Positions 1,860 to 11,765 of a stretch of 11,765 bases of DNA are shown piece by piece. The translations under genes and the position numbers were made by a program. Each line of letters begins with the position of its first letter. Position 1 is the first letter of the stretch. The stretch covers positions 1 to 11,765 of the forward strand of contig JBHLRQ010000038.1 of assembly GCA_048882385.1 (NCBI GenBank). The letters run 5' to 3'. The notes under the pieces are model-generated. The model was given only the letters and a program-made list of their open reading frames with translations. It was not told the DNA's origin and searched no databases. Source of the stretch: Candidatus Thorarchaeota archaeon (lineage in GTDB: Archaea > Asgardarchaeota > Thorarchaeia > Thorarchaeales > Thorarchaeaceae).

Positions 1860-3353
1860 TTAGGGATTATACGCAAATGGATGCCTTGCAGAATCCTTCC
1901 TCCTAATGATTTCCTCAACACTATGCCTACCTTCAATAGCACGACGCAATGCATGTCGTGTAGATATGAAGTTGTTAATGTGGACACGAGTCGGATTTAC
2001 GGCACTTGGATGAACGAACACATTTACAGCAATAACCAGATCAGGAACCAGTTCCTCGGGTATGATTGCGTCTGTAATGGTCCGACGTATCGCATCAGAA
2101 ACAGCCTTCTGTGCAACGTCATAGACCATCTTCTTATGTTTCTCTGAAGTGATTGTCACTGTAGGAGCGAAGACAGTCTTCAGTTCTAGATTCTTGATTA
2201 TGTTTGAGGGGTGTGTGTCTTCAATAATTTTTCCTGCGTTTTCGAGTGCAAATCCTACTGGACCACTTCGCATTCCCATGACAAGGTCAACATGAGCAAT
2301 TTCACTGCCTCCTCCAAACAATGCTTCACCATGAAGTAATGTTAGATCTTTAACAACATCAGGTACCATGCCAACAGCTTTGGGATAGTTCTCACTTACG
2401 AGAGATCGGTCGCCCATCTTGAAGACTACTTCTCCTCTTGGAATCAGCTGAAGGTCTTCCAAACATGTTCTAATTTCATCATGCATGTCATATCCAAGAC
2501 TGTCACCTACTTGTAGCGGGAGCTTCGCTGGACCAACTGACACTCCCATCATATTGAGGGCTGCTTTCACGGCAAGACCTCCACCATTATTGACGAAAAT
2601 TCGAATGAGTTTCTGAATACTTCTCTGTATAATGAGAGCTTCTTTCAGATCACCGTTTGCGAGAGCAGCTTGCATTTTGATATATCGATCAGGAAAGACA
2701 TTTGCACTAGCTAGAATTGCACCATCACATCCCGATGCAAGAGCGGGTAATGCTACTTCATCATGACCAACAACAACCTGAAAGTGCTCGGGCTTTCGAA
2801 CAAGGATGGTTGTTAGATTGACAAGATCACCGCTGGAATCCTTCATCCCAATTATTCCATCAATATCTCTGAGCCCATCAACTAAGGTCCAGTGTATTGG
2901 TACACCAGTCACTTGAGGAATATTGTATACGAAGATAGGAATGTCACTATTGTTTGCAACTCGCTCAAAGTGATCATAAATCTCTTTGTCAGATGGTTTG
3001 AGGAAATATGGCGAAACAACAAGAGCTGCAGATGCTCCAAATTCTGCGGCTTTTCGTGTCAATTTGACAACGTCACCAGTATATGCAGCCCCGGTTCCAG
3101 CCATAACAGGGACTCGACCCTTAGCAGCGTCGCACGCTATTCTAATGCATTCAACTTTCTCATCAAATTTCATGCTAGTGAATTCACCAGTTGTACCACA
3201 AGGGACTATTCCAGTTGCTCCACTTTTTATGACATAGTCAATTAGTCGACGATACTGTTTTTCGTTTACACCATTTTCATCGAGTGGAGTCACAAGTGCT
3301 GGGTAAACACCCTGAAAGCGATATTCTCCTTCTGACACTTTGCTTACCTCCAT
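1860..3353 (-). CDS. DapA/DHDPS-family class I aldolase fused to a C-terminal formaldehyde-activating enzyme (Fae) domain
   Basis: N-terminal ~300 aa has GVYPALVTP, GTTGEF, YNIP and the Schiff-base Lys in GMKDSSG. The C-terminus has GEALFGGGSEIAHVDLVMG, VFVHP and a terminal RHPF, typical of Fae. The real start is probably GTG at 3338, preceded by GGAGGT. Confidence 0.88.
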   Translation of the reverse strand: MEVSKVSEGEYRFQGVYPALVTPLDENGVNEKQYRRLIDYVIKSGATGIVPCGTTGEFTSMKFDEKVECIRIACDAAKGRVPVMAGTGAAYTGDVVKLTRKAAEFGASAALVVSPYFLKPSDKEIYDHFERVANNSDIPIFVYNIPQVTGVPIHWTLVDGLRDIDGIIGMKDSSGDLVNLTTILVRKPEHFQVVVGHDEVALPALASGCDGAILASANVFPDRYIKMQAALANGDLKEALIIQRSIQKLIRIFVNNGGGLAVKAALNMMGVSVGPAKLPLQVGDSLGYDMHDEIRTCLEDLQLIPRGEVVFKMGDRSLVSENYPKAVGMVPDVVKDLTLLHGEALFGGGSEIAHVDLVMGMRSGPVGFALENAGKIIEDTHPSNIIKNLELKTVFAPTVTITSEKHKKMVYDVAQKAVSDAIRRTITDAIIPEELVPDLVIAVNVFVHPSAVNPTRVHINNFISTRHALRRAIEGRHSVEEIIRRKDSARHPFAYNP

Positions 3354-4741
3354 ATTCCTCCTAGCGCTGATTCCACAGCTTGCTGCGTAGCTGCTGTTAT
3401 CTCACGCCGATCTCTAAGGTTGAGATCAATATCTAGAGCCAAGATGGTAACATCATTGTTCACTGAATTCTTTGGAATCTTACCATCCTCCAAGAAGCCA
3501 GCAATAGCTTTGGCAGTTCCTGATTGTACAGGTCCGTAAAATAGAGAGGCTTGTCGCATAGACTCAATCTTTCTGATAGGCATCATGAGACTACTTGGTT
3601 TGACTGCAAGATTTGGCTCAAGAATTACTGTCAATGCCTCATATCCAATCTTGGGAGTTGTTAGAAGTTGAACAAAACTCCGACCAATCGGTCCATTTTT
3701 GGAACCAGTTACAATACCAACAGAAACAGTGGCATTCGATGCATTACTTGTTTTTATTGAGGGGGACTCTTCGATTCTAAGTCCTTGTTTGGAAAGTATG
3801 TCAAGAATCTGGATATCAGTGTTTACTGGTGAATGGGTTAGGTTTTCAATCAGACCCATTTTTTCAAGCTCTATTCGAATCTCTTCCTTAATCTCAGGAG
3901 TGAGTGTCCCACCAGTATTCAATGGCATTCTACTCTTTCCAGCTTTTATACCTAGCATTCTGAGTGCGGCTTTAACTGGAGGTGCTGCTCCAAATTTCAG
4001 TACCATTCTGGCAAAGGTCTGCGTAGTCCTTTGAAGCTCTGCAGCTTCCTCGATCTTACCTTCTTTTACTTTCTTCATGATATCCAACCAGAGATGAGGA
4101 ATTACATTGGCAGAAGCCATTATAGCTGCATTAGAACCTGCGATGACTGCAGACAGAAAGTTTTCATCAGCCCCACAGAGGACTTCCATCTTGCCTTTTA
4201 GTTTCTGGATCAATTCAAGTAGATATGGAACACTACCACTGCTATCTTTTATCCCAACAATGTTATCCAATTGAGCGAGATCTTCAACTACGTTCGTATT
4301 TAGAACTCCCAATGTGCATTGAGGAATATTATAGAGAATAATTGGGAGGTCACCTTTTCTTGCAATTGTAGCATAGTGTTCATAATAGCCCTTATCAGCT
4401 GGTCTCAGGTAGTAAGGAGAAATGACAAGAGCGGCGTCACAACCTAGATCAGCTGCATATTTTGTCAATTTGACTGTAGCATCGGTTGTATGTAATCCAG
4501 TTCCAGCAATTATTGGCACCCTCCCATCAACAAAATCTACAGTGATCTTTAGAAGCTTCTTTCGTTCTTCTGTCCTCATATAGGAGAACTCACCAGTTGT
4601 TCCAGCAGGAACTACTCCCGTGGCACCCTTATCAATGACATATTCAATGACCTGTTTGAAACCCTCTTCACTTATGTCGCCATCACGAGTGAATGGTGTC
4701 ACCAAGGCGGGCATAACACCTTGTGGTTTGAATCTACTCAC
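3344..4741 (-). CDS. DapA/DHDPS-family class I aldolase fused to a degenerate Fae-like domain
   Basis: GVMPALVTPF, GTTGEF, YNIP and GIKDSSG. The C-terminal GPIGRSF...GYEALTVILEPNLAVKPSSLMMP...LFYGPVQSGTAKAI matches the Fae core but lacks the AHIDL histidine motif. GTG start with GGTGAT SD. Confidence 0.85.
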   Translation of the reverse strand: MSRFKPQGVMPALVTPFTRDGDISEEGFKQVIEYVIDKGATGVVPAGTTGEFSYMRTEERKKLLKITVDFVDGRVPIIAGTGLHTTDATVKLTKYAADLGCDAALVISPYYLRPADKGYYEHYATIARKGDLPIILYNIPQCTLGVLNTNVVEDLAQLDNIVGIKDSSGSVPYLLELIQKLKGKMEVLCGADENFLSAVIAGSNAAIMASANVIPHLWLDIMKKVKEGKIEEAAELQRTTQTFARMVLKFGAAPPVKAALRMLGIKAGKSRMPLNTGGTLTPEIKEEIRIELEKMGLIENLTHSPVNTDIQILDILSKQGLRIEESPSIKTSNASNATVSVGIVTGSKNGPIGRSFVQLLTTPKIGYEALTVILEPNLAVKPSSLMMPIRKIESMRQASLFYGPVQSGTAKAIAGFLEDGKIPKNSVNNDVTILALDIDLNLRDRREITAATQQAVESALGGIWR

Positions 4742-4849
4742 AGAATCACCAAGATATCGAGCAAATTGGTGGTGTATAAATGACCTTCGCTTGACGAGTT
4801 GGGACAGAAAAACAGAAGGCGATATATGGACTCAATGCATTTGAGAGAT
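4742..4849. promoter_or_regulatory. Divergent promoter region (aldolase-Fae pair / cutA)
   Basis: TTTATA on the minus strand near 4775-4780 precedes the aldolase gene. ATATAT near 4822-4827 lies about 25 nt before the cutA ATG at 4850, consistent with a leaderless mRNA. Confidence 0.4.
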
Positions 4850-5173
4850 ATGCCAGATTACGTGGTTGCTCTCACTACATGTCCAAAGGATCAGAGCGAA
4901 GGACTTGCGCGTAGTTTAGTTGAAGAGAAAGCCTGTGCATGTGTCAACATCATTTTCAATGTGAAAAGTATCTACCACTGGAAAGACGAAATTGTTGTAG
5001 ATGAGGAAGCTATTCTAATTATGAAAACTGAAGTGGACCACAAAGAAGTACTTTGGAAAGCAATCAAGAGAAAACACCCCTACGAAGTTCCCGAATTTGT
5101 TGTCTTACCTATCAAATGGGGTTCTCAGGATTATCTCAACTGGATATCAGCTAGCATTGAATTGTCGGGATGA
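4850..5173 (+). CDS. cutA: CutA divalent-cation tolerance protein
   Basis: VALTTCP, LVEEKACACVNI, SIYHWKDEI, E.ILIMKT and HPYEVPE...YLNWI are CutA1 motifs. Start moved from 4799 to ATG 4850 (about 107 aa, the normal family length). Confidence 0.93.
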   Translation: MPDYVVALTTCPKDQSEGLARSLVEEKACACVNIIFNVKSIYHWKDEIVVDEEAILIMKTEVDHKEVLWKAIKRKHPYEVPEFVVLPIKWGSQDYLNWISASIELSG

Positions 5174-5174
5174 A

Positions 5175-7625
5175 CTATACAATATCAGCTCTTCTTGCGG
5201 CATAAACTAATGACTCATTGAAGTACTTGCCAACAACAGCACTTAATGTTGGACCGATGACATAGTTTAGATCACCGGGCATGAGCTCCTTGAGGTTTGT
5301 CTTGGATGTGAGCTTACCTTTCCGTTTCAGAGAACTTATCTCACGATCAACGGTTGATTTAGCTTTGTCCCAAGGCATTGGCTCGACACCTCTCCCAGTT
5401 CCAATCAAACCTTCTTTTATCTCAAAGAGGCTCCTCATGATGAATATTGAGAGATTGTCAATGTCTGTTGATTCTTTAACGAAATTCTTTCCGTGTTGTG
5501 TACAATTACCTTCTTTAACAATAGATCCACAAGCTGTGCAAATCAGGCGCCCTCGATTTTTCTTGATATAGAAAGCTAGAAGATTGGAACATTTTGTGGT
5601 GTCGTTCTGAGACCACTCCAACCCTTTAGTACCCACTCTACTAATTGCTCGAAAGACTGTAAGTGCTTTATTATGAAGATACATTAGTACATCAATACCC
5701 TCTTTCTTAGATTCGATTCTTCGTTTCTCTTTCTCCTTTGTTTCAAATGCAAACTCCTCTTTAGCCAGTTTTTCAAGACGTTCCTGTTTTAGAAATCGGT
5801 GCATGATATCATAGGCAATTGCATAGTTATCAAATTCAAGACTGGACATATCTAGAGGTTTGTTGACGATGCCTTCGAATACTGGGCTTGTACTAGTCTC
5901 AAGGTCTTTTTTGGCGGCCATCATGTCTTTATTCGATAGACGGGCATGCATCCAAGTACAGATTGTCTGAGCATCTAATTCTGGAAAGTTAATCTTCATT
6001 TCATATATACGCATAGATTCAAGATCAATCAGAATCTCTTCGCGTAGAAATTGTAAGCCAGATTCAGTATCTTCATAGATGCTTTTGAGTAATGCTTTGA
6101 TACGGAGCAAATCCTGTTTCGAACGAATATAGGCTTCAACGACCCTCGTAAGATTTGTCAGAATGCCAATAGTAAAGTGCCAAATAATATCTAATCGTAA
6201 AGCCAACACAGTTTCTTCTTCTGTTCTCTGCTGCGTAAAGTCCCGTGCTGACGATATCCCCAAAGAACTTAGTGCTCCTGTCTTTACTTGCTCTCTTACG
6301 CCTAGTAATCTTACTACTTCTTCTGGAGGAGGCACACGCATTTTCTTTTTGAGTTCTTCGAGAATTTCCACTTCGATTCCTACTAGCTTTTCCCGCTCTT
6401 TTGTGAATAGATCAATGGATATTTTCTCAAGCTCTGCTGACCAATATCCCTTTGACCTTAGTAGTCCCTTAACAGGACCATCAAGTAGACGTTCCATTTT
6501 TTCCAATGTCTTTAAAGACCTCTCAAGGGATTCTAACTCTTCCTTGCTTACCTCAGGTCGTGTGGAATCTGCAATGGTTTCAGTTGTCAACGACTGAAGA
6601 CCAGGACCAATAACAGTCGGATCACCAATGCCTCTTCTTCTCAATTGCGCGCGTATATCATCTGGACTAACCAGTAACAAGTTTGCGAGTGATTCATAGA
6701 TTGTTTCAGCATCAGTGTTCAGAATATCAGAAATACGACTTGAAACAATATCACCTAATTTCTTTTCATACTCTTCAAGAGTTGTAGGTATATCAAATTC
6801 AGCCTCTAGGACCTCAAGCATGGTAATACGCATCTCGTGTGATTTTCTTAATCCCTTGAGGTCTTCTGACCGCTTGCAAAATCTAGCTGCAATACTGGAA
6901 GCAATAGCATCCCAGTTTCTAATTGGTACAACTGAATCAAGCAAACGTCCTTTCGCATATTCAACCTTCCCAAAAATTTTCTCAATACCCATTTTCAGAA
7001 TTGTAGTTTCAGGAACTTCAGAAGCATGTTCCCTTAGCAGCTCTTCTCTTAATGATAGTGCACTCTCTTTTAACCCAGAAGCCTTTGTATAGAGGTCCTT
7101 ACGCCATTGGTCAGCCCATCCTGTGATCTCTAGTATTAAATCAATATCGTGATTTGATGCATATTCACTAGGAATCTGACTGAGAGTATCTCTTAGAGTT
7201 TGGATGATTTTCTCTTTGATTTCCGGGGAGGATGAATCTGTTCCAGCAACTGAATCGATAAGACGGATAGTCAACAAACTTGTTTGCTTTGCCACATCAA
7301 TTTCTTCACGTTGTTTTTCAGACAGTAACTTACGAACCTCCAGTTCGAGTTGTTGACGTTCTTCATCTCCCAGATCATCTTTCATATCACTTCCCACTCC
7401 GGGTTCATCTGATGGAGCTAAGAGGCGAATACCCTGATAGCTGTGAAGATAGAAAGCAGCAAAGAAAGAAAACACCCCCTCAAGTGGTTGTTTTTCCTTT
7501 AACAACTCATGAAATAGTTGTCTATCTCGAGTACTCCTCATATGAGAAGCTAGTGCTTCTCTCAACAGGATTTCTTTGCCAGCTTCACTCATTTGACGAG
7601 TTTTCAATACCCACGAACTTGCCAT
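5175..7625 (-). CDS. Large alpha-helical hypothetical protein with a C-terminal CxxC-x8-CxxH zinc-finger-like motif
   Basis: Uninterrupted ORF of ~816 aa rich in E/L/K, with CTACGSIVKEGNCTQHG near the C-terminus. The ATG at 7625 follows a GAGGTGA SD that contains the upstream gene's stop codon. Confidence 0.85.
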   Translation of the reverse strand: MASSWVLKTRQMSEAGKEILLREALASHMRSTRDRQLFHELLKEKQPLEGVFSFFAAFYLHSYQGIRLLAPSDEPGVGSDMKDDLGDEERQQLELEVRKLLSEKQREEIDVAKQTSLLTIRLIDSVAGTDSSSPEIKEKIIQTLRDTLSQIPSEYASNHDIDLILEITGWADQWRKDLYTKASGLKESALSLREELLREHASEVPETTILKMGIEKIFGKVEYAKGRLLDSVVPIRNWDAIASSIAARFCKRSEDLKGLRKSHEMRITMLEVLEAEFDIPTTLEEYEKKLGDIVSSRISDILNTDAETIYESLANLLLVSPDDIRAQLRRRGIGDPTVIGPGLQSLTTETIADSTRPEVSKEELESLERSLKTLEKMERLLDGPVKGLLRSKGYWSAELEKISIDLFTKEREKLVGIEVEILEELKKKMRVPPPEEVVRLLGVREQVKTGALSSLGISSARDFTQQRTEEETVLALRLDIIWHFTIGILTNLTRVVEAYIRSKQDLLRIKALLKSIYEDTESGLQFLREEILIDLESMRIYEMKINFPELDAQTICTWMHARLSNKDMMAAKKDLETSTSPVFEGIVNKPLDMSSLEFDNYAIAYDIMHRFLKQERLEKLAKEEFAFETKEKEKRRIESKKEGIDVLMYLHNKALTVFRAISRVGTKGLEWSQNDTTKCSNLLAFYIKKNRGRLICTACGSIVKEGNCTQHGKNFVKESTDIDNLSIFIMRSLFEIKEGLIGTGRGVEPMPWDKAKSTVDREISSLKRKGKLTSKTNLKELMPGDLNYVIGPTLSAVVGKYFNESLVYAARRADIV

Positions 7626-7631
7626 TGTCAA

Positions 7632-10256
7632 TCACCTCAGAAAAGTACTCCCCACTGACACGATCATATCGGTTCCATGTCGATTATATGTCACAAGATA
7701 GAGTAATCCCTCTTCTTTCGTATCTCGAAGATAGACTCGAGAAATTCGTGGTAGAAGATGTCCTAGACCTCGAACTGTTGAGTTCATTAAATGCTCTACA
7801 AATTCTTGACCAATGTTGATACCAATCAATGATGCAGATCCAATACCTTCCGCTTGAAGTCGTAACACACGTCTCGCAAATATATCCTCCATTCCTTTCT
7901 CTCGTTCCTTCAGTTGGAGGAGTTTACTCTGAAGGAGGTCTCGAAGTTCTATGTAGAATTTGAGAGAGGGATCCGGACTTGGTTTTTGAGGCTCTGGTTT
8001 TTCTTCCTTTACAGGATATTGATTTCGAATATCATCAATTTCTGATTCGATTGATGAAGGTTTGATTGGTTCTTCTGGAGGAGGTGCGACAGAGCCAGGT
8101 AGATAATCTTCAACAGCAGTCGCAGCTTTATACTCTTCAAGTTTCATTTTGTAGTCTTGCAGAGAAGCTTCGTATTCTCGCATCGCTACGTCATATTGTT
8201 GTGTTTTCTCTGCAATCAAAGACTCACGTTTTGTATTGTTTTCACGTATTAATTCATTCTCTTGTTTAACAATCTGACATTGTGCTTCCCATTCCTGAAT
8301 CTCTTTTCGATACTTATCTTCACGAATATCAGCCTCGAATTTTGCTCTATCAGCCATTGAACTCGGGGTAACCGTTTCTCCTACAATTTCATGAACTGAG
8401 TGTAGGAGAGTAAGAAGAGCTTGGGGTTGTGTCATTGTTTCGTCAATTGCACCTCTAAAACTATCTACCCAGTCTAGTGCTTCTTTTTTCCATTCATCTG
8501 GTCGCTCTGCAGCGCTTTCGATAGCTACTGATAGCTCTTCAACGAGGTTTGTTTTTTCCTGAAGCATTTTGTCGATGATACGACGAACAAGAGGCTTTGA
8601 GAGAATTGTATTTGCAACATCAGGAATTATGTCTGATCCTAGAGTTTCAAATTCATCAAGTAGAGACATTAATGTCACTCCATGATCAGTCAATGGACCC
8701 TCACCTTGGGGCACACTATAGTTCTGAGTTATTGCACGACGTGCAATTTCAGCCACATCAGAAAAGCCAATCAAATCCCAAACATCAATTTCCTTGAAAG
8801 CATCAATCATTTTTCGAGTTATTACATCCATCAATTGTTTGAAATCTTGATAGCTAGCACCCACAAACATCTCTTTCGAAAATGCAGCGTTTAGTTGAGC
8901 TTCAACTTCAGCATAGAATTTTTCAAACAAAGTCAGGTCTGTTGGATCCGAATACTCACTGAGAGCCTCTTGTCTGAATTCATTGAGGGCAGTGATGAAA
9001 GCTTTCCTTGCAGCGTTTATCACAAGATACTGATTTAACTCATTTGAGAAATATTGAGTCACCTTTGTAGCGTAAGCTATCGAATATCTCAAAGTACCCT
9101 TTAACTGCCATGCACGAACCTCTCCAAGCTGAGAAAATTCACGAGTAACTGAGTTCATAAAACGTTCAGCGAGTTCAAGAGAGAGTTTCTTCCTGATTCC
9201 AGAGAATTCATCACTGGCTGAAACAGTTCCAATTAGAGAGCTTTTGTGGGCTTCGATAGTAAGTGATTTCCCGGAGCTCAAATGTTGCTCAACAATATGT
9301 TCTAGAGAGTTTACAGTTTCTTCCAGTGATTTTACGAACTCATCTATTCTCGGTTTCAGAGAATCAATATCCGATAATGAAACTTCACTCAGCTGAAGAA
9401 ACTCAATTAGAGCAGCAACAACACCTTCGACGACTTCTGCTTCCTCAACAGCATATGCGTAATAGTTTAGTTCTTTAAGGACATCTTGACCTGTTTCTGG
9501 AATTGTCTTTGTTAAAGTTTCAATCGCACTTGGAGTAAGGACTCTATGTTTAAAGTGTTCAACAAGCTTTTCATCAGAGGACGATGGAATGCTGAATTCC
9601 AAACTCTTACGACCGATAATTTTCATTCCTGGAGGTAGTGATGTAAAATCATCAATAACGGACATTTTAGCTACTAGGTCAACATCTATGTGTTCGGGTT
9701 TCACTTGAAGTGAATCCCAAGAACCTTGGAATCTTCTGTCTATCATATCTACAAACAATACACTGTTCAAACGGTCTGCAAAATCTCGTAGGACAGCAAG
9801 TCCTTCAAGTTCGTAATTCAACTCATTATTGATAACCGCGCTCTCTATGTCCGCCATTTTCTTTGATAGAGTTTTCATATACTGGTCAATCTTGAACGGA
9901 TCAACAACTCCTTTTTCCCAACTCAGAACGCACACATGAGATCCTACTCCTCCTTCACTACCACCTGCAACAACAAGCTGCTCAGGTAAAACTTCTGGAC
10001 TTGGTGTACGATCTAGATCCCATTCCACAGATAATAGCTCAAGTCCTTCTGAAGATATTAGCGTATCACGTATAGCAAATATCAAAGGCGCTATGTTCAT
10101 TGCAACTGTTTCAGAATATTGTTCCAACATACTCCCTGCGCCAATTGCACTTCCAATAGGGTAGCCTAATCCTGTTGAGGTGCCTAAAACAGAAGCTGAT
10201 GCCATTCGAATAGCTTCAACTGTACTGGGAGTCTGTACATCTCTACGCTTACTCAT
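7632..10256 (-). CDS. Large hypothetical protein with a possible N-terminal longin-like domain, helical body and coiled coil with Pro-rich inserts
   Basis: 874-aa ORF with a GAGGAG SD. Long E/K/Q heptad region in the C-terminal third, and Pro-rich segments APPPEEPIKP and PVKEEKPEPQKPSPDP. The domain call is inferred from pattern only. Confidence 0.85.
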   Translation of the reverse strand: MSKRRDVQTPSTVEAIRMASASVLGTSTGLGYPIGSAIGAGSMLEQYSETVAMNIAPLIFAIRDTLISSEGLELLSVEWDLDRTPSPEVLPEQLVVAGGSEGGVGSHVCVLSWEKGVVDPFKIDQYMKTLSKKMADIESAVINNELNYELEGLAVLRDFADRLNSVLFVDMIDRRFQGSWDSLQVKPEHIDVDLVAKMSVIDDFTSLPPGMKIIGRKSLEFSIPSSSDEKLVEHFKHRVLTPSAIETLTKTIPETGQDVLKELNYYAYAVEEAEVVEGVVAALIEFLQLSEVSLSDIDSLKPRIDEFVKSLEETVNSLEHIVEQHLSSGKSLTIEAHKSSLIGTVSASDEFSGIRKKLSLELAERFMNSVTREFSQLGEVRAWQLKGTLRYSIAYATKVTQYFSNELNQYLVINAARKAFITALNEFRQEALSEYSDPTDLTLFEKFYAEVEAQLNAAFSKEMFVGASYQDFKQLMDVITRKMIDAFKEIDVWDLIGFSDVAEIARRAITQNYSVPQGEGPLTDHGVTLMSLLDEFETLGSDIIPDVANTILSKPLVRRIIDKMLQEKTNLVEELSVAIESAAERPDEWKKEALDWVDSFRGAIDETMTQPQALLTLLHSVHEIVGETVTPSSMADRAKFEADIREDKYRKEIQEWEAQCQIVKQENELIRENNTKRESLIAEKTQQYDVAMREYEASLQDYKMKLEEYKAATAVEDYLPGSVAPPPEEPIKPSSIESEIDDIRNQYPVKEEKPEPQKPSPDPSLKFYIELRDLLQSKLLQLKEREKGMEDIFARRVLRLQAEGIGSASLIGINIGQEFVEHLMNSTVRGLGHLLPRISRVYLRDTKEEGLLYLVTYNRHGTDMIVSVGSTFLR

Positions 10257-10333: not shown

Positions 10334-11290
10334 TTATCCCTCTTCTACTCGAGTCCAAACGCCCTTACCAAGGTCTCGAACAAGACCAGCCTCTTTCAGA
10401 CCCATAAGAGTAACATGAACAGTCGTGGTCAGTAATGCCTCAAGACTCTGAGGAATCGGGACACTTCGGGCTTGATTAATATCAAAAACAAGTTGCTCAA
10501 CATCAGCTTCCTCTCGAGCTTCTATATAGGTGAGGATTATGTCTTGTAGGTGAATGACGCCATCCCTAACTGATTCAAATTGAAGGCGCGCATCGCCATA
10601 GATGTGGGGAGTGTCGTGTGATGGAAGGACATGCTCTGCCCCTATTTTTTCTAATGTTTCAAGTGCAGTTAATTTCGATACAATGCTTCCACTTGTATCA
10701 ACATAGAACTTTCGAGGATCATTTGGAAAATTATTCACCTCGTCTCCAGTGAAAAGGGCTTTACGAGATTTATCGTAGAAGACGCAATGTCCAATTGAAT
10801 GACCACCAGTGTGGATAACTTTGATTGCAGTGCTACCTACATTGATTATCTGACCATGAGTAAGGAGTTCATCAGGATCTATTCCTCGATAGTTTACTCT
10901 AAGAGGCCCCTTGTCTAGCTTCATTGAAAAGCGCTCTGCACGATCAAGAATAAGTCGGTTGTTTAGAAAATCCCCCGGTTTTTTGAGAATTTCTGCATCC
11001 CCTTCATGGATCATAATTGGAGCCTCAGTCGCTTTTTTGAAACGACCTGCACCTCCAACATGGTCTGGATGTCCGTGGGAACAAAGGACACCGACAATAT
11101 CGGTTTTTGGATCAAATCCTAGGTTCTTGATAGATTTCTCAAGCCTATCACCAGGGTCTCCTGCAGTCCCTGGGTCAATAACAAGAACCTCCCCTGAATC
11201 AATAATGAGATAGCTAGCAATAAAGCCAAACTCTCCTGCGAATTTTCCACGAACGACATGAATACCAGGTATAATTTCTGTTGATGCCAT
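10334..11290 (-). CDS. MBL-fold metallo-hydrolase (glyoxalase II-like) with C-terminal winged-helix-like extension
   Basis: LVIDPG, SHGHPDHVGG (HxHxDH), HTGGHSIGH, LFTGD and VLPSHD. The C-terminus ends in the wHTH-like pattern L..LKEAGLV. Confidence 0.92.
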   Translation of the reverse strand: MASTEIIPGIHVVRGKFAGEFGFIASYLIIDSGEVLVIDPGTAGDPGDRLEKSIKNLGFDPKTDIVGVLCSHGHPDHVGGAGRFKKATEAPIMIHEGDAEILKKPGDFLNNRLILDRAERFSMKLDKGPLRVNYRGIDPDELLTHGQIINVGSTAIKVIHTGGHSIGHCVFYDKSRKALFTGDEVNNFPNDPRKFYVDTSGSIVSKLTALETLEKIGAEHVLPSHDTPHIYGDARLQFESVRDGVIHLQDIILTYIEAREEADVEQLVFDINQARSVPIPQSLEALLTTTVHVTLMGLKEAGLVRDLGKGVWTRVEEG

Positions 11291-11376: not shown

Positions 11377-11765
11377 ATGAAGGGAGCATATACTCTAATA
11401 ATTCAAGTGGAGAAAGATGTTAGCATCAAGATCCTATCTCAATATGAAGTGGAATTTAAGTCGGGTATTTGGGTCTATGTGGGGTCAGCAATGGGTAGTG
11501 GCTCAACAAGTTTGGAAAACAGGATTAAGCGTCATTTTCGTTCGCAAAAGAAAATACACTGGCACATTGACTATTTACTTGTAAGGGATGCAAAATTAAT
11601 CAAAGCATTTTGGGCAGAGAGCCCAGTTCACATTGAGTGTGATATTGCACAAAAAATTCAATCTAGAGATGAATTTCAAGTAGGACCTAAAAACTTTGGA
11701 TCGTCTGATTGTCAAAAGAGGTGTTCAGCTCATATTTTCAGATTCTTAAATGTAGGCAATGTAGA
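11377..11765 (+). CDS. DUF123 / Uri-superfamily GIY-YIG endonuclease, 3'-partial (absent from the ORF track)
   Basis: Manual translation: MKGAYTLII...GIWVYVGSAMG...LENRIKRHFRSQKKIHWHIDYLL...ECDIA...FGSSDCQKRCSAH. The frame is open to the window end. Confidence 0.9.
   Translation, partial: MKGAYTLIIQVEKDVSIKILSQYEVEFKSGIWVYVGSAMGSGSTSLENRIKRHFRSQKKIHWHIDYLLVRDAKLIKAFWAESPVHIECDIAQKIQSRDEFQVGPKNFGSSDCQKRCSAHIFRFLNVGNV

Follow-up and report, generated by a model that had tools for sequence, protein, structure and literature searches.

In a Candidatus Thorarchaeota genome we found two adjacent genes, A and B, each encoding an aldolase barrel of the DHDPS family fused to a Fae-like domain, with the conserved residues of the Fae fold divided between the two proteins. 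Among our new results, this mutual division of a single fold's conserved residues, between paralogs that have been transferred together, is the most solid. The genes are located in a window of 11,765 nt (the whole stretch of DNA that was analysed), which is the beginning of a contig (C38) of 26,784 bases; the genome has a size of 3.70 Mb and is 95.3% complete. As an explanation we tentatively propose, with a confidence that does not quite reach an even chance, that A and B make up an obligate heteromeric aldolase-Fae enzyme with one-carbon (C1) chemistry at the formaldehyde level, rather than DapA proteins of the lysine pathway.

Reciprocal loss of conserved residues in two Fae-like domains

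Gene A is the upstream paralog (Table 1). The reading frames of A and B overlap by 10 nt; the ATG of B is positioned 5 nt before the TAA of A, and a Shine-Dalgarno motif, GGAGG, is found 3 bases upstream of this ATG. Such an arrangement implies that translation of the two genes is likely to be coupled. The TTTATA element in the gap between A and the divergent cutA gene marks the putative promoter of the pair. The sequencing runs carrying this DNA were DNA runs only (sediment, mangrove and marsh metagenomes), none of them RNA, and are silent on expression.

The adjacent paralogs with DapA-family and Fae domains described in the initial annotation were confirmed by the open reading frames and by Pfam. 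The DHDPS profile (PF00701, cut-off 22.1 bits) matched residues 6-276 of A (E-value 7.9e-79, 264.8 bits) and 13-281 of B (2.3e-71, 240.3 bits), while the Fae profile (PF08714, cut-off 27 bits) matched residues 338-460 of A (profile positions 12-134 of 159; 5.2e-27, 95.2 bits) and 342-493 of B (positions 2-158 of 159; 1e-29, 104 bits). The NCBIfam model TIGR03126 (one_C_fae) gave 116.0 bits for B and 84.5 bits for A, both below its cut-off of 118.05; the assignment to Fae stood by the Pfam profile and fell short by the NCBIfam one, narrowly for B and clearly for A. The two proteins are 34% identical to each other. AlphaFold2 models were obtained with pLDDT of 90.8 for A and of 89.8 for B (pTM 0.89). 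Homologs of A and B, at 63-93% identity, are listed under Thorarchaeota or Promethearchaeota and go by the name of 4-hydroxy-tetrahydrodipicolinate synthase (EC 4.3.3.7) or DapA.

Table 1. Features of the window and of the loci compared with it (coordinates with no prefix are positions in the window)
Feature	Coordinates	Strand	Description
Gene A, upstream paralog	3344..4741	minus	465 aa, GTG start; from ORF listing
Gene B, downstream paralog	1860..3353	minus	497 aa, ATG start; from ORF listing
DHDPS-family aldolase domain of A	3914..4726	minus	GTTGEF; YNIPQC-TL, without Arg; IKDSSG (Lys165)
Fae-like domain of A	3362..3730	minus	Ser at the Fae His position, no C-terminal arm; ILEPNLxVKP loop and RQAS..YGPVQ kept
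DHDPS-family aldolase domain of B	2511..3317	minus	GTTGEF; YNIPQV-TG, without Arg; MKDSSG (Lys171)
Fae domain of B	1875..2330	minus	AHVDL (His354, Asp356), C-terminal SARHPFAYNP; 4-aa loop deletion, Gly-Pro before Gln lost
A/B junction	3344..3361	minus	GGAGG 3361-3357, B start ATG 3353-3351, A stop TAA 3346-3344; read from the sequence
Putative archaeal promoter for A-B	4742..4798		57 bp; TTTATA 4780-4775 (minus), 34 nt before GTG; divergent from cutA
CN-hydrolase family gene	1-975	plus	no evident link to the pair
CutA1 gene	4799-5173	plus	no evident link to the pair
Large ORF	5175-7631	minus	818 aa, abuts the next; no Pfam match
Large ORF	7632-10256	minus	874 aa; no Pfam match
MBL-fold hydrolase gene	10334-11290	minus	no evident link to the pair
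DUF123 gene	11377-11763	plus	no evident link to the pair
Bacterial A/B tandems	L051:6508-9479; L052:7848-10920; L053:6386-9443
426-aa family loci	L023:6695-7975; L026:6687-7970; L028:6676-7983; L041:751-2019; and others
Host threonine synthase genes	C60:643-1914; C201:2118-3275		genome without Hom, Asd or recognisable homoserine kinase

The earlier statement that both proteins carry a Fae-like domain holds, with the qualification that the domains are not equivalent: the domain of A is truncated at its C-terminus and has Ser in place of His, and that of B keeps AHVDL. In comparison with the Fae structure in PDB entry 1Y5Y, B could be aligned over chain residues 8-168 (E-value 7.2e-20), with AH.D, the conserved Gln and the C-terminal HPFA kept, whereas A could be aligned over residues 17-130 only and shows there V-S-V-G, Ser and Gly replacing His and Asp (VSVGI). 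The same division was seen in a motif census of 120 A-type and 113 B-type sequences. The Fae His was present in no A-type sequence and in 112 B-type sequences; the C-terminal arm was missing from 119 A-type sequences and present in every B-type one. Conversely, A-type sequences have kept the ILEPNLxVKP loop and the Gly-Pro before the Gln (YGPVQ), while in B-type sequences the loop has a 4-residue deletion and the Gly-Pro is lost.

As a yardstick for this division we used 70 columns of the Fae domain that are nearly invariant in 17 single-copy fusions (described below); 125 A-type and 117 B-type sequences were compared with them. A kept 21 of these columns and B kept 34, with only 4 kept by both and 19 by neither. 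The 13 columns kept by A alone form one block (P0120 positions 373-409, plus 450), and the 26 kept by B alone cover the His segment at the N-terminus along with all of the C-terminal third. By the same yardstick, A retains 74 and B 76 of 107 columns of the aldolase domain. Judged by their residues, the Fae domains of A and B are not redundant; they are complementary halves.

The degenerate Fae-like domain of A is folded in the AlphaFold2 model (pLDDT 84-97). The ratio of nonsynonymous to synonymous substitution rates (dN/dS) was ~0.07 in this domain and 0.11-0.26 in the linkers; as dS is saturated (~2) and each segment is represented by only 6-25 of the 36 pairs, these values indicate strong constraint in a qualitative sense only. 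The Fae domains of the A and B sets score ~95-142 bits in comparison with 210-240 bits for canonical Fae.

The Fae domains of A and B belong to the same fold family as Fae of Methylorubrum extorquens (PDB 1Y5Y/1Y60), which differs in standing alone, presumably as a homopentamer; B lacks four of its loop residues and A lacks its His and Asp. The Fae His considered here is what we take to be the catalytic His22 of the M. extorquens enzyme. A structural study of Fae from 2005 is said to have described His22 as the acid catalyst, as well as Gln88, a C-terminal arm becoming ordered on binding, a homopentamer and pterin bound between neighbouring subunits. Given this reported position of the pterin and the complementary loss of residues, the simplest reading is that a composite site would be formed at the A/B interface. 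A predicted complex of the two Fae-like domains scored 0.64, compared with 0.69 for a control, and was used neither for nor against this reading.

A tree of 35 fusions placed every A-type sequence in one clade (SH-aLRT 99) and every B-type sequence in another (97); the B clade was sister to the Asgard single-copy fusions together with one Bathyarchaeia sequence (SH-aLRT 90). A second Asgard family and three bacteria are represented in both clades, and the tandem is found in each of these as well. The tree indicates that the A/B pair is the product of one old duplication. The order A then B was found in 11 of 11 loci of the same genus, as well as in three other genera of the host's own family and at L054; the tandem was also found in one genome (G005) of another Asgard family and in three bacterial genomes, two from Anaerolineales (GC 0.63-0.64) and one unclassified (GC 0.41). 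As the bacterial tandems are orthologous, the pair is likely to have been transferred between domains of life. The 85 genomes of the host's own family mostly contain exactly two Fae-domain matches (70 genomes), with four matches in 1, one in 7 and none in 7.

Bathyarchaeia and further Asgard lineages have a single copy of the fusion, 492-503 aa in length. The Fae domains of these single-copy fusions are near-canonical (225.3 and 189.5 bits with TIGR03126, 209.8 bits with PF08714) and keep the His and the arm, which points to a real Fae ancestry; we take these fusions to be ancestors of the A/B form. At 50% identity the whole architecture makes ~13 full-length clusters among 1.84 billion representatives; thus, the family is small. 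We found no paper describing a DHDPS-Fae fusion in a literature search that left outside its range the supplementary gene tables for Asgard and Bathyarchaeia, which might list the genes.

A candidate aldolase-Fae enzyme and its one-carbon context

The aldolase barrels of both proteins have the Schiff-base Lys, the Tyr of YN.P and GTTGEF (K165 and Y137 in A, K171 and Y143 in B). The motifs quoted in the initial annotation proved to be right; the sequences show GTTGEF in both proteins, YNIPQC-TL and IKDSSG in A, and YNIPQV-TG and MKDSSG in B. In the census the Lys was found in 120 of 120 A-type and 108 of 113 B-type sequences, and GTTGEF in 119 of 120 A-type sequences. The other five B-type sequences show LSDASG together with ASLGEF, a dead aldolase.

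These five sequences, one of them B at L029:7998-9476 (genome G334), come from a single genus; they have lost the Lys (LSDASG) and the Thr-Thr of GTTGE (ASLGEF), and have kept the Fae His and the arm.

In the explanation we favour, A and B would be two subunits of one heteromeric bifunctional enzyme, and each subunit would consist of a Schiff-base (class I) 2-oxoacid aldolase of the DHDPS/NAL superfamily and a Fae domain. A would supply the fully conserved aldolase site and the Fae half with the ILEPNL loop and RQAS..YGPVQ. B would supply the GEAL..AH.D His segment, FVHP...NN...R and the C-terminal RHPF arm, along with a second, usually intact barrel. A functional pterin/formaldehyde site would form only at the A/B interface. 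A C1 unit at the formaldehyde level would then pass between methylene-tetrahydromethanopterin (methylene-H4MPT), at the Fae module, and the pyruvate enamine on the aldolase Lys: pyruvate + methylene-H4MPT <-> 4-hydroxy-2-oxobutanoate + H4MPT. In the host the reaction would most likely run towards 4-hydroxy-2-oxobutanoate (HOB), and from there to homoserine and threonine, because threonine synthases are present and aspartate-semialdehyde and homoserine dehydrogenases are absent.

The choice of substrate in this scheme was guided by Fae-Hps (NF009833), a fusion of Fae to a formaldehyde-releasing or -consuming enzyme in hosts with the H4MPT pathway; this bifunctional 5,6,7,8-tetrahydromethanopterin hydro-lyase / 3-hexulose-6-phosphate synthase is found in methanogens and other archaea. 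By analogy, an aldolase fused to Fae should release or consume formaldehyde, which for a pyruvate aldolase would give HOB. The Fae parts of A and B match positions 4-161 and 16-140 (of 392) of NF009833, and no match extends beyond the Fae portion of this model. The partner domain is different, being an OMPdecase-fold Hps in Fae-Hps and a class I pyruvate aldolase of the DHDPS family in A and B; furthermore, Fae is C-terminal in A and B, the enzyme is split in this lineage into two complementary paralogs, and the host has no Hps, since the only OMPdecase-family gene of its genome is PyrF-like. With no Hps domain, A and B are not members of the Fae-Hps family. An available excerpt of a published study (PMC11291895) mentions Fae-HPS in Atabeyarchaeia only.

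The host genome encodes Mch, Ftr and Mtd, in agreement with the H4MPT metabolism expected in the initial annotation, and A and B contain the only Fae domains of the genome. Among 400 genomes of the phylum, Fae was found in 284 and Mch in 285, with almost the same distribution over families. Families with fusions (counted by a best E-value < 1e-60, phylum counts not being independent of phylogeny) were f1, f4, f5, f13, f14, f21 (one genome), f22, f28, f30 and f32; all of them are Mch-positive, while families with no Mch have neither Fae nor the fusion. Outside the host's own family the best Fae match is a 220-244-bit domain in a frame of 390-460 aa, Fae-Hps-like by length alone, which the own family does not have; many genomes have two Fae matches, and the single-copy fusion persists even where a lineage has a high-scoring canonical Fae. 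RFAP synthase (TIGR00144), a marker of H4MPT biosynthesis, was found neither in the host genome nor in a Bathyarchaeial control and is thus uninformative. We also considered the fusion as an H4MPT-dependent ketopantoate hydroxymethyltransferase substituting for PanB, and rejected this option as PanB is present in the host genome (381.7 bits).

Two proteins of the host scored above the cut-off of the threonine synthase model NF006050 (333 and 481.6 bits against 303). In the same genome no match was found to Semialdhyde_dhC (Asd) or to Homoserine_dh (Hom), at 95.3% completeness. A similar combination was observed across families with fusions: of the 85 genomes of f1, the host's own, 3 have Hom and 68 have ThrC; the corresponding figures were 0/19 and 15/19 in f14, 0/3 and 3/3 in f4, and 0/3 and 2/3 in f28. 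Eight Mch-positive families with no fusion (f15, f16, f17, f18, f19, f20, f23 and f29) together have Hom in 26 of 27 genomes. Of the f22 genomes, 80 have the fusion and 55 lack it; Hom was found in 34 of the former and in 37 of the latter (odds ratio 0.36; p 0.005 by a naive test that ignores kinship).

The steps proposed here, from pyruvate and formaldehyde through HOB and homoserine to threonine, follow the same order as the engineered homoserine cycle. As outlined in the pertinent part of a review (He et al., reviewed in PMC8879981), that cycle uses the E. coli class II enzyme RhmA for the HOB aldolase step followed by an HOB aminotransferase, and HOB is called there a non-native metabolite. 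In this synthetic cycle, free formaldehyde is the substrate of a promiscuous metal-dependent aldolase, while the A/B enzyme would be of class I and would receive its C1 unit from a pterin via the fused Fae.

In its most specific form, the proposal describes a pterin-linked pyruvate hydroxymethyltransferase of Asgard and Bathyarchaeial anaerobes and a few bacteria, which would transfer the methylene of methylene-H4MPT via the fused Fae to pyruvate, giving HOB and then homoserine and threonine in cells with no aspartate-semialdehyde route; the Fae site of the A/B form would be an obligate composite of a 'dead' and a 'live' subunit. While the idea of formaldehyde and HOB as substrates seems plausible to us, the homoserine route itself may be given only as a minority possibility, and a rather doubtful one.

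A number of observations weigh against an aldolase-Fae enzyme working on methylene-H4MPT and pyruvate. The choice of substrate is a guess made by analogy to Fae-Hps, and the TIGR03126 scores of both Fae domains are below the cut-off. In the barrels, an invariant G-x-D-E along with Ser/Asn residues could suit a polar aldehyde larger than formaldehyde. One bacterial A has retained the His (VHIEI), so that loss of the His is not a defining trait of A. The bacterial hosts present a further difficulty: Mch was found in none of three (genome completeness not given) and an Ftr-like gene (85 bits) in only one of three. Thus, a strict tie of the pair to the H4MPT pathway is not general, and the co-occurrence with H4MPT genes which the initial annotation suggested to survey, seen as Mch in every fusion family of the 400 genomes, broke down in the three bacteria; the Fae module must in these hosts use another pterin or do something else. 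With regard to homoserine, no homoserine kinase was recognised in the host genome (the best thrB match, 45.6 bits, is a mevalonate/galactokinase-like protein). Many genomes contain both the fusion and Hom, as do the 34 genomes of f22 counted above; f13 has fusions and ThrC in only 1 of 12 genomes, and the contrast of Hom and fusion across families ignores phylogeny. Finally, neighbours of the fusions differ between lineages, and no transaminase, kinase or other pathway gene was linked to the pair at the loci examined.

Several of these points would be expected if the barrels were aldolases, or hydratase-aldolases, for another pair of 2-oxoacid and aldehyde (a 2-keto-3-deoxy or 4-hydroxy-2-oxo acid), with the Fae-like domains serving as an oligomerisation or ligand-sensing module which, in the A/B form at any rate, would not act on formaldehyde. 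The divergence of the A and B Fae domains to below the NCBIfam cut-off, the absence of Mch from the three bacterial hosts and the lack of a homoserine-pathway gene linked to the pair are consistent with this explanation, and so is the invariant G-x-D-E, which presumably resembles that of the sugar-binding members of the DHDPS/NAL family. It accounts less well for the retention of the Fae His/Asp segment in 112 of 113 B-type sequences and of the arm in all of them, for the near-canonical Fae domain of single-copy orthologs, and for the fusions being the only Fae domains in the host's own family despite its H4MPT pathway. The residue partition is complementary, not random, and both halves are under purifying selection, as if a ligand site were being kept. 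We consider that a different substrate is somewhat unlikely, while among the alternatives it survives best.

It is also conceivable that the main job of the fusions is formaldehyde scavenging: Fae would produce methylene-H4MPT, pyruvate would act as a second sink via the aldolase, and no biosynthetic pathway would follow. The Thorarchaeal family has no canonical Fae or Fae-Hps of the kind seen in other lineages of the phylum, the fusions hold the only Fae domains of the genome, and no gene of a downstream pathway is linked to them, all of which would fit a role in detoxification. Still, lineages with a canonical high-scoring Fae have retained the single-copy fusion as well, every catalytic residue of the A aldolase barrel is retained in 120 of 120 sequences, and in the bacteria with the pair there is no Mch by which methylene-H4MPT could be processed. 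A function in scavenging thus appears improbable to us.

The DapA name of A and B

The two proteins would be named DapA by routine annotation. Both pass the NCBIfam model TIGR00674 (dapA) with 228.8 and 228.2 bits against a cut-off of 206.15. The best Foldseek matches to the model of B are DHDPS structures (TM 0.93-0.96 over the barrel, 31-34% identity), and the best PDB sequence matches are DHDPS too. A and B share with DHDPS/DapA the barrel, the Schiff-base Lys, the Tyr and GTTGE; they differ in having no Arg in the YN.P motif, no Asd or DapB in the genome and an extra Fae domain.

The residue following YN.P. is Cys (A) or Val (B), and never Arg, in all 240 fusions tabulated, while Arg occupies this position in 59 of 124 stand-alone DHDPS-like relatives (280-330 aa, found with a profile of the fusions); the absence of the DHDPS Arg reported earlier thus extends beyond the window. 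We take this Arg to be R138 of the E. coli enzyme, which presumably binds the carboxylate of aspartate semialdehyde. R138H and R138A DHDPS mutants appear as PDB titles among the structure matches.

The residue equivalent to Tyr107, to which we assume a role in DHDPS, is always Phe in B and mostly Tyr in A of the Thorarchaeal family; it was dropped as a general argument since the bacterial pairs do not follow this pattern.

With no Asd in the genome, no aspartate semialdehyde would be available. A true DapB was not found in the host genome either: its only DapB_N match is a 350-aa Ord-like protein, with 284.5 bits on the 2,4-diaminopentanoate dehydrogenase model and 26.6 bits on dapB. Therefore, the genome offers no sign of the substrate of the DapA step or of the enzyme that comes after it. 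The third DHDPS-family gene of the genome (contig C42) is KdgD-like. The view expressed in the initial annotation, that A and B are probably not lysine-pathway DHDPS, is upheld by the lack of Asd and Hom and by the Ord-like nature of the sole 'DapB' match. That A and B are genuine DapA enzymes of lysine or diaminopimelate synthesis, extended by an accessory domain at the C-terminus, is very unlikely in spite of the TIGR00674 scores, the DHDPS matches in PDB and the DapA names of homologs, given the replacement of the motif Arg by Cys or Val in every fusion tabulated and a genome with no Asd, DapB or Hom.

The Ord-like 2,4-diaminopentanoate dehydrogenase gene (host C54:8294-9346; L009:781-1833) adjoins an aminomutase-like gene, which hints at ornithine fermentation.

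Neighbouring genes and significance of the fusions

The synteny of the A/B pair with cutA, the 818-aa and 874-aa ORFs and the gene of the MBL (metallo-beta-lactamase)-fold protein is kept in other genera of the host's family (L030, L031). These neighbours are uninformative as to function. A shared MBL neighbour was considered and discarded: the MBL protein of the window and the one encoded near an Anaerolineales pair are not specifically related (BLASTP E-value 0.03). Neighbours of the bacterial pairs (AhcY, a 491-aa pyridoxal phosphate (PLP) enzyme, ThrC-like, PadR, MFS and nucleoside hydrolase) were likewise rejected as pathway partners, being common to the two Anaerolineales loci only and found near the fusion at none of the other loci. 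The PLP enzyme, which has a PALP fold and is distantly CysK-like (483-491 aa), is encoded ~2.5 kb from the A/B pair in an Anaerolineales bacterium (L053:11890-13365) and has a homolog with 65% identity in the host (C59:17603-19054).

The single-copy fusion has a conserved neighbour. At 14 of 17 loci the fusion adjoins a gene for a 426-aa protein (cl1); in the 8 Asgard loci among these, this gene is upstream and on the same strand, and in the 6 Bathyarchaeial ones it is divergently oriented. This family has a mean column identity of 76% across Asgard and Bathyarchaeia; every named source calls it hypothetical, and no match was found in Pfam, NCBIfam, PDB (by sequence or by profile) or the ESM Atlas. 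The host genome has a copy with 65% identity (C40:24085-25365) which is not linked to the pair. Of the three bacteria one has the protein, and two Asgard genomes with fusions lack it. We regard it as the best lead to the rest of the pathway.

Another conserved neighbour, cl14 (312-315 aa; L024:5601-6548, L025:5828-6766), with no match in Pfam or NCBIfam, was seen in two other Asgard families in which the 426-aa protein is missing; hhalign gave a probability of 14% for a relation between the two.

Hundreds of database entries with this architecture are named 4-hydroxy-tetrahydrodipicolinate synthase; by the residue and pathway evidence, the name is very probably wrong. This would affect metabolic reconstructions of Asgard archaea and Bathyarchaeia which credit these organisms with lysine synthesis or count 'Fae' as simple formaldehyde detoxification. 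For any substrate, the A/B pair presents a clean case of reciprocal loss in two genes that move together, even between domains of life. The conserved 426-aa neighbour of the single-copy form gives a tangible starting point for finding the remaining pathway. If C1 units do pass between H4MPT and a 2-oxoacid, the fusions would make a new link to the archaeal Wood-Ljungdahl pathway and a template for synthetic formaldehyde assimilation. If the enzyme is a pyruvate hydroxymethyltransferase, nature would have its own version of the engineered homoserine cycle, and C4 amino acids could be made by a route branching directly off the Wood-Ljungdahl pathway.

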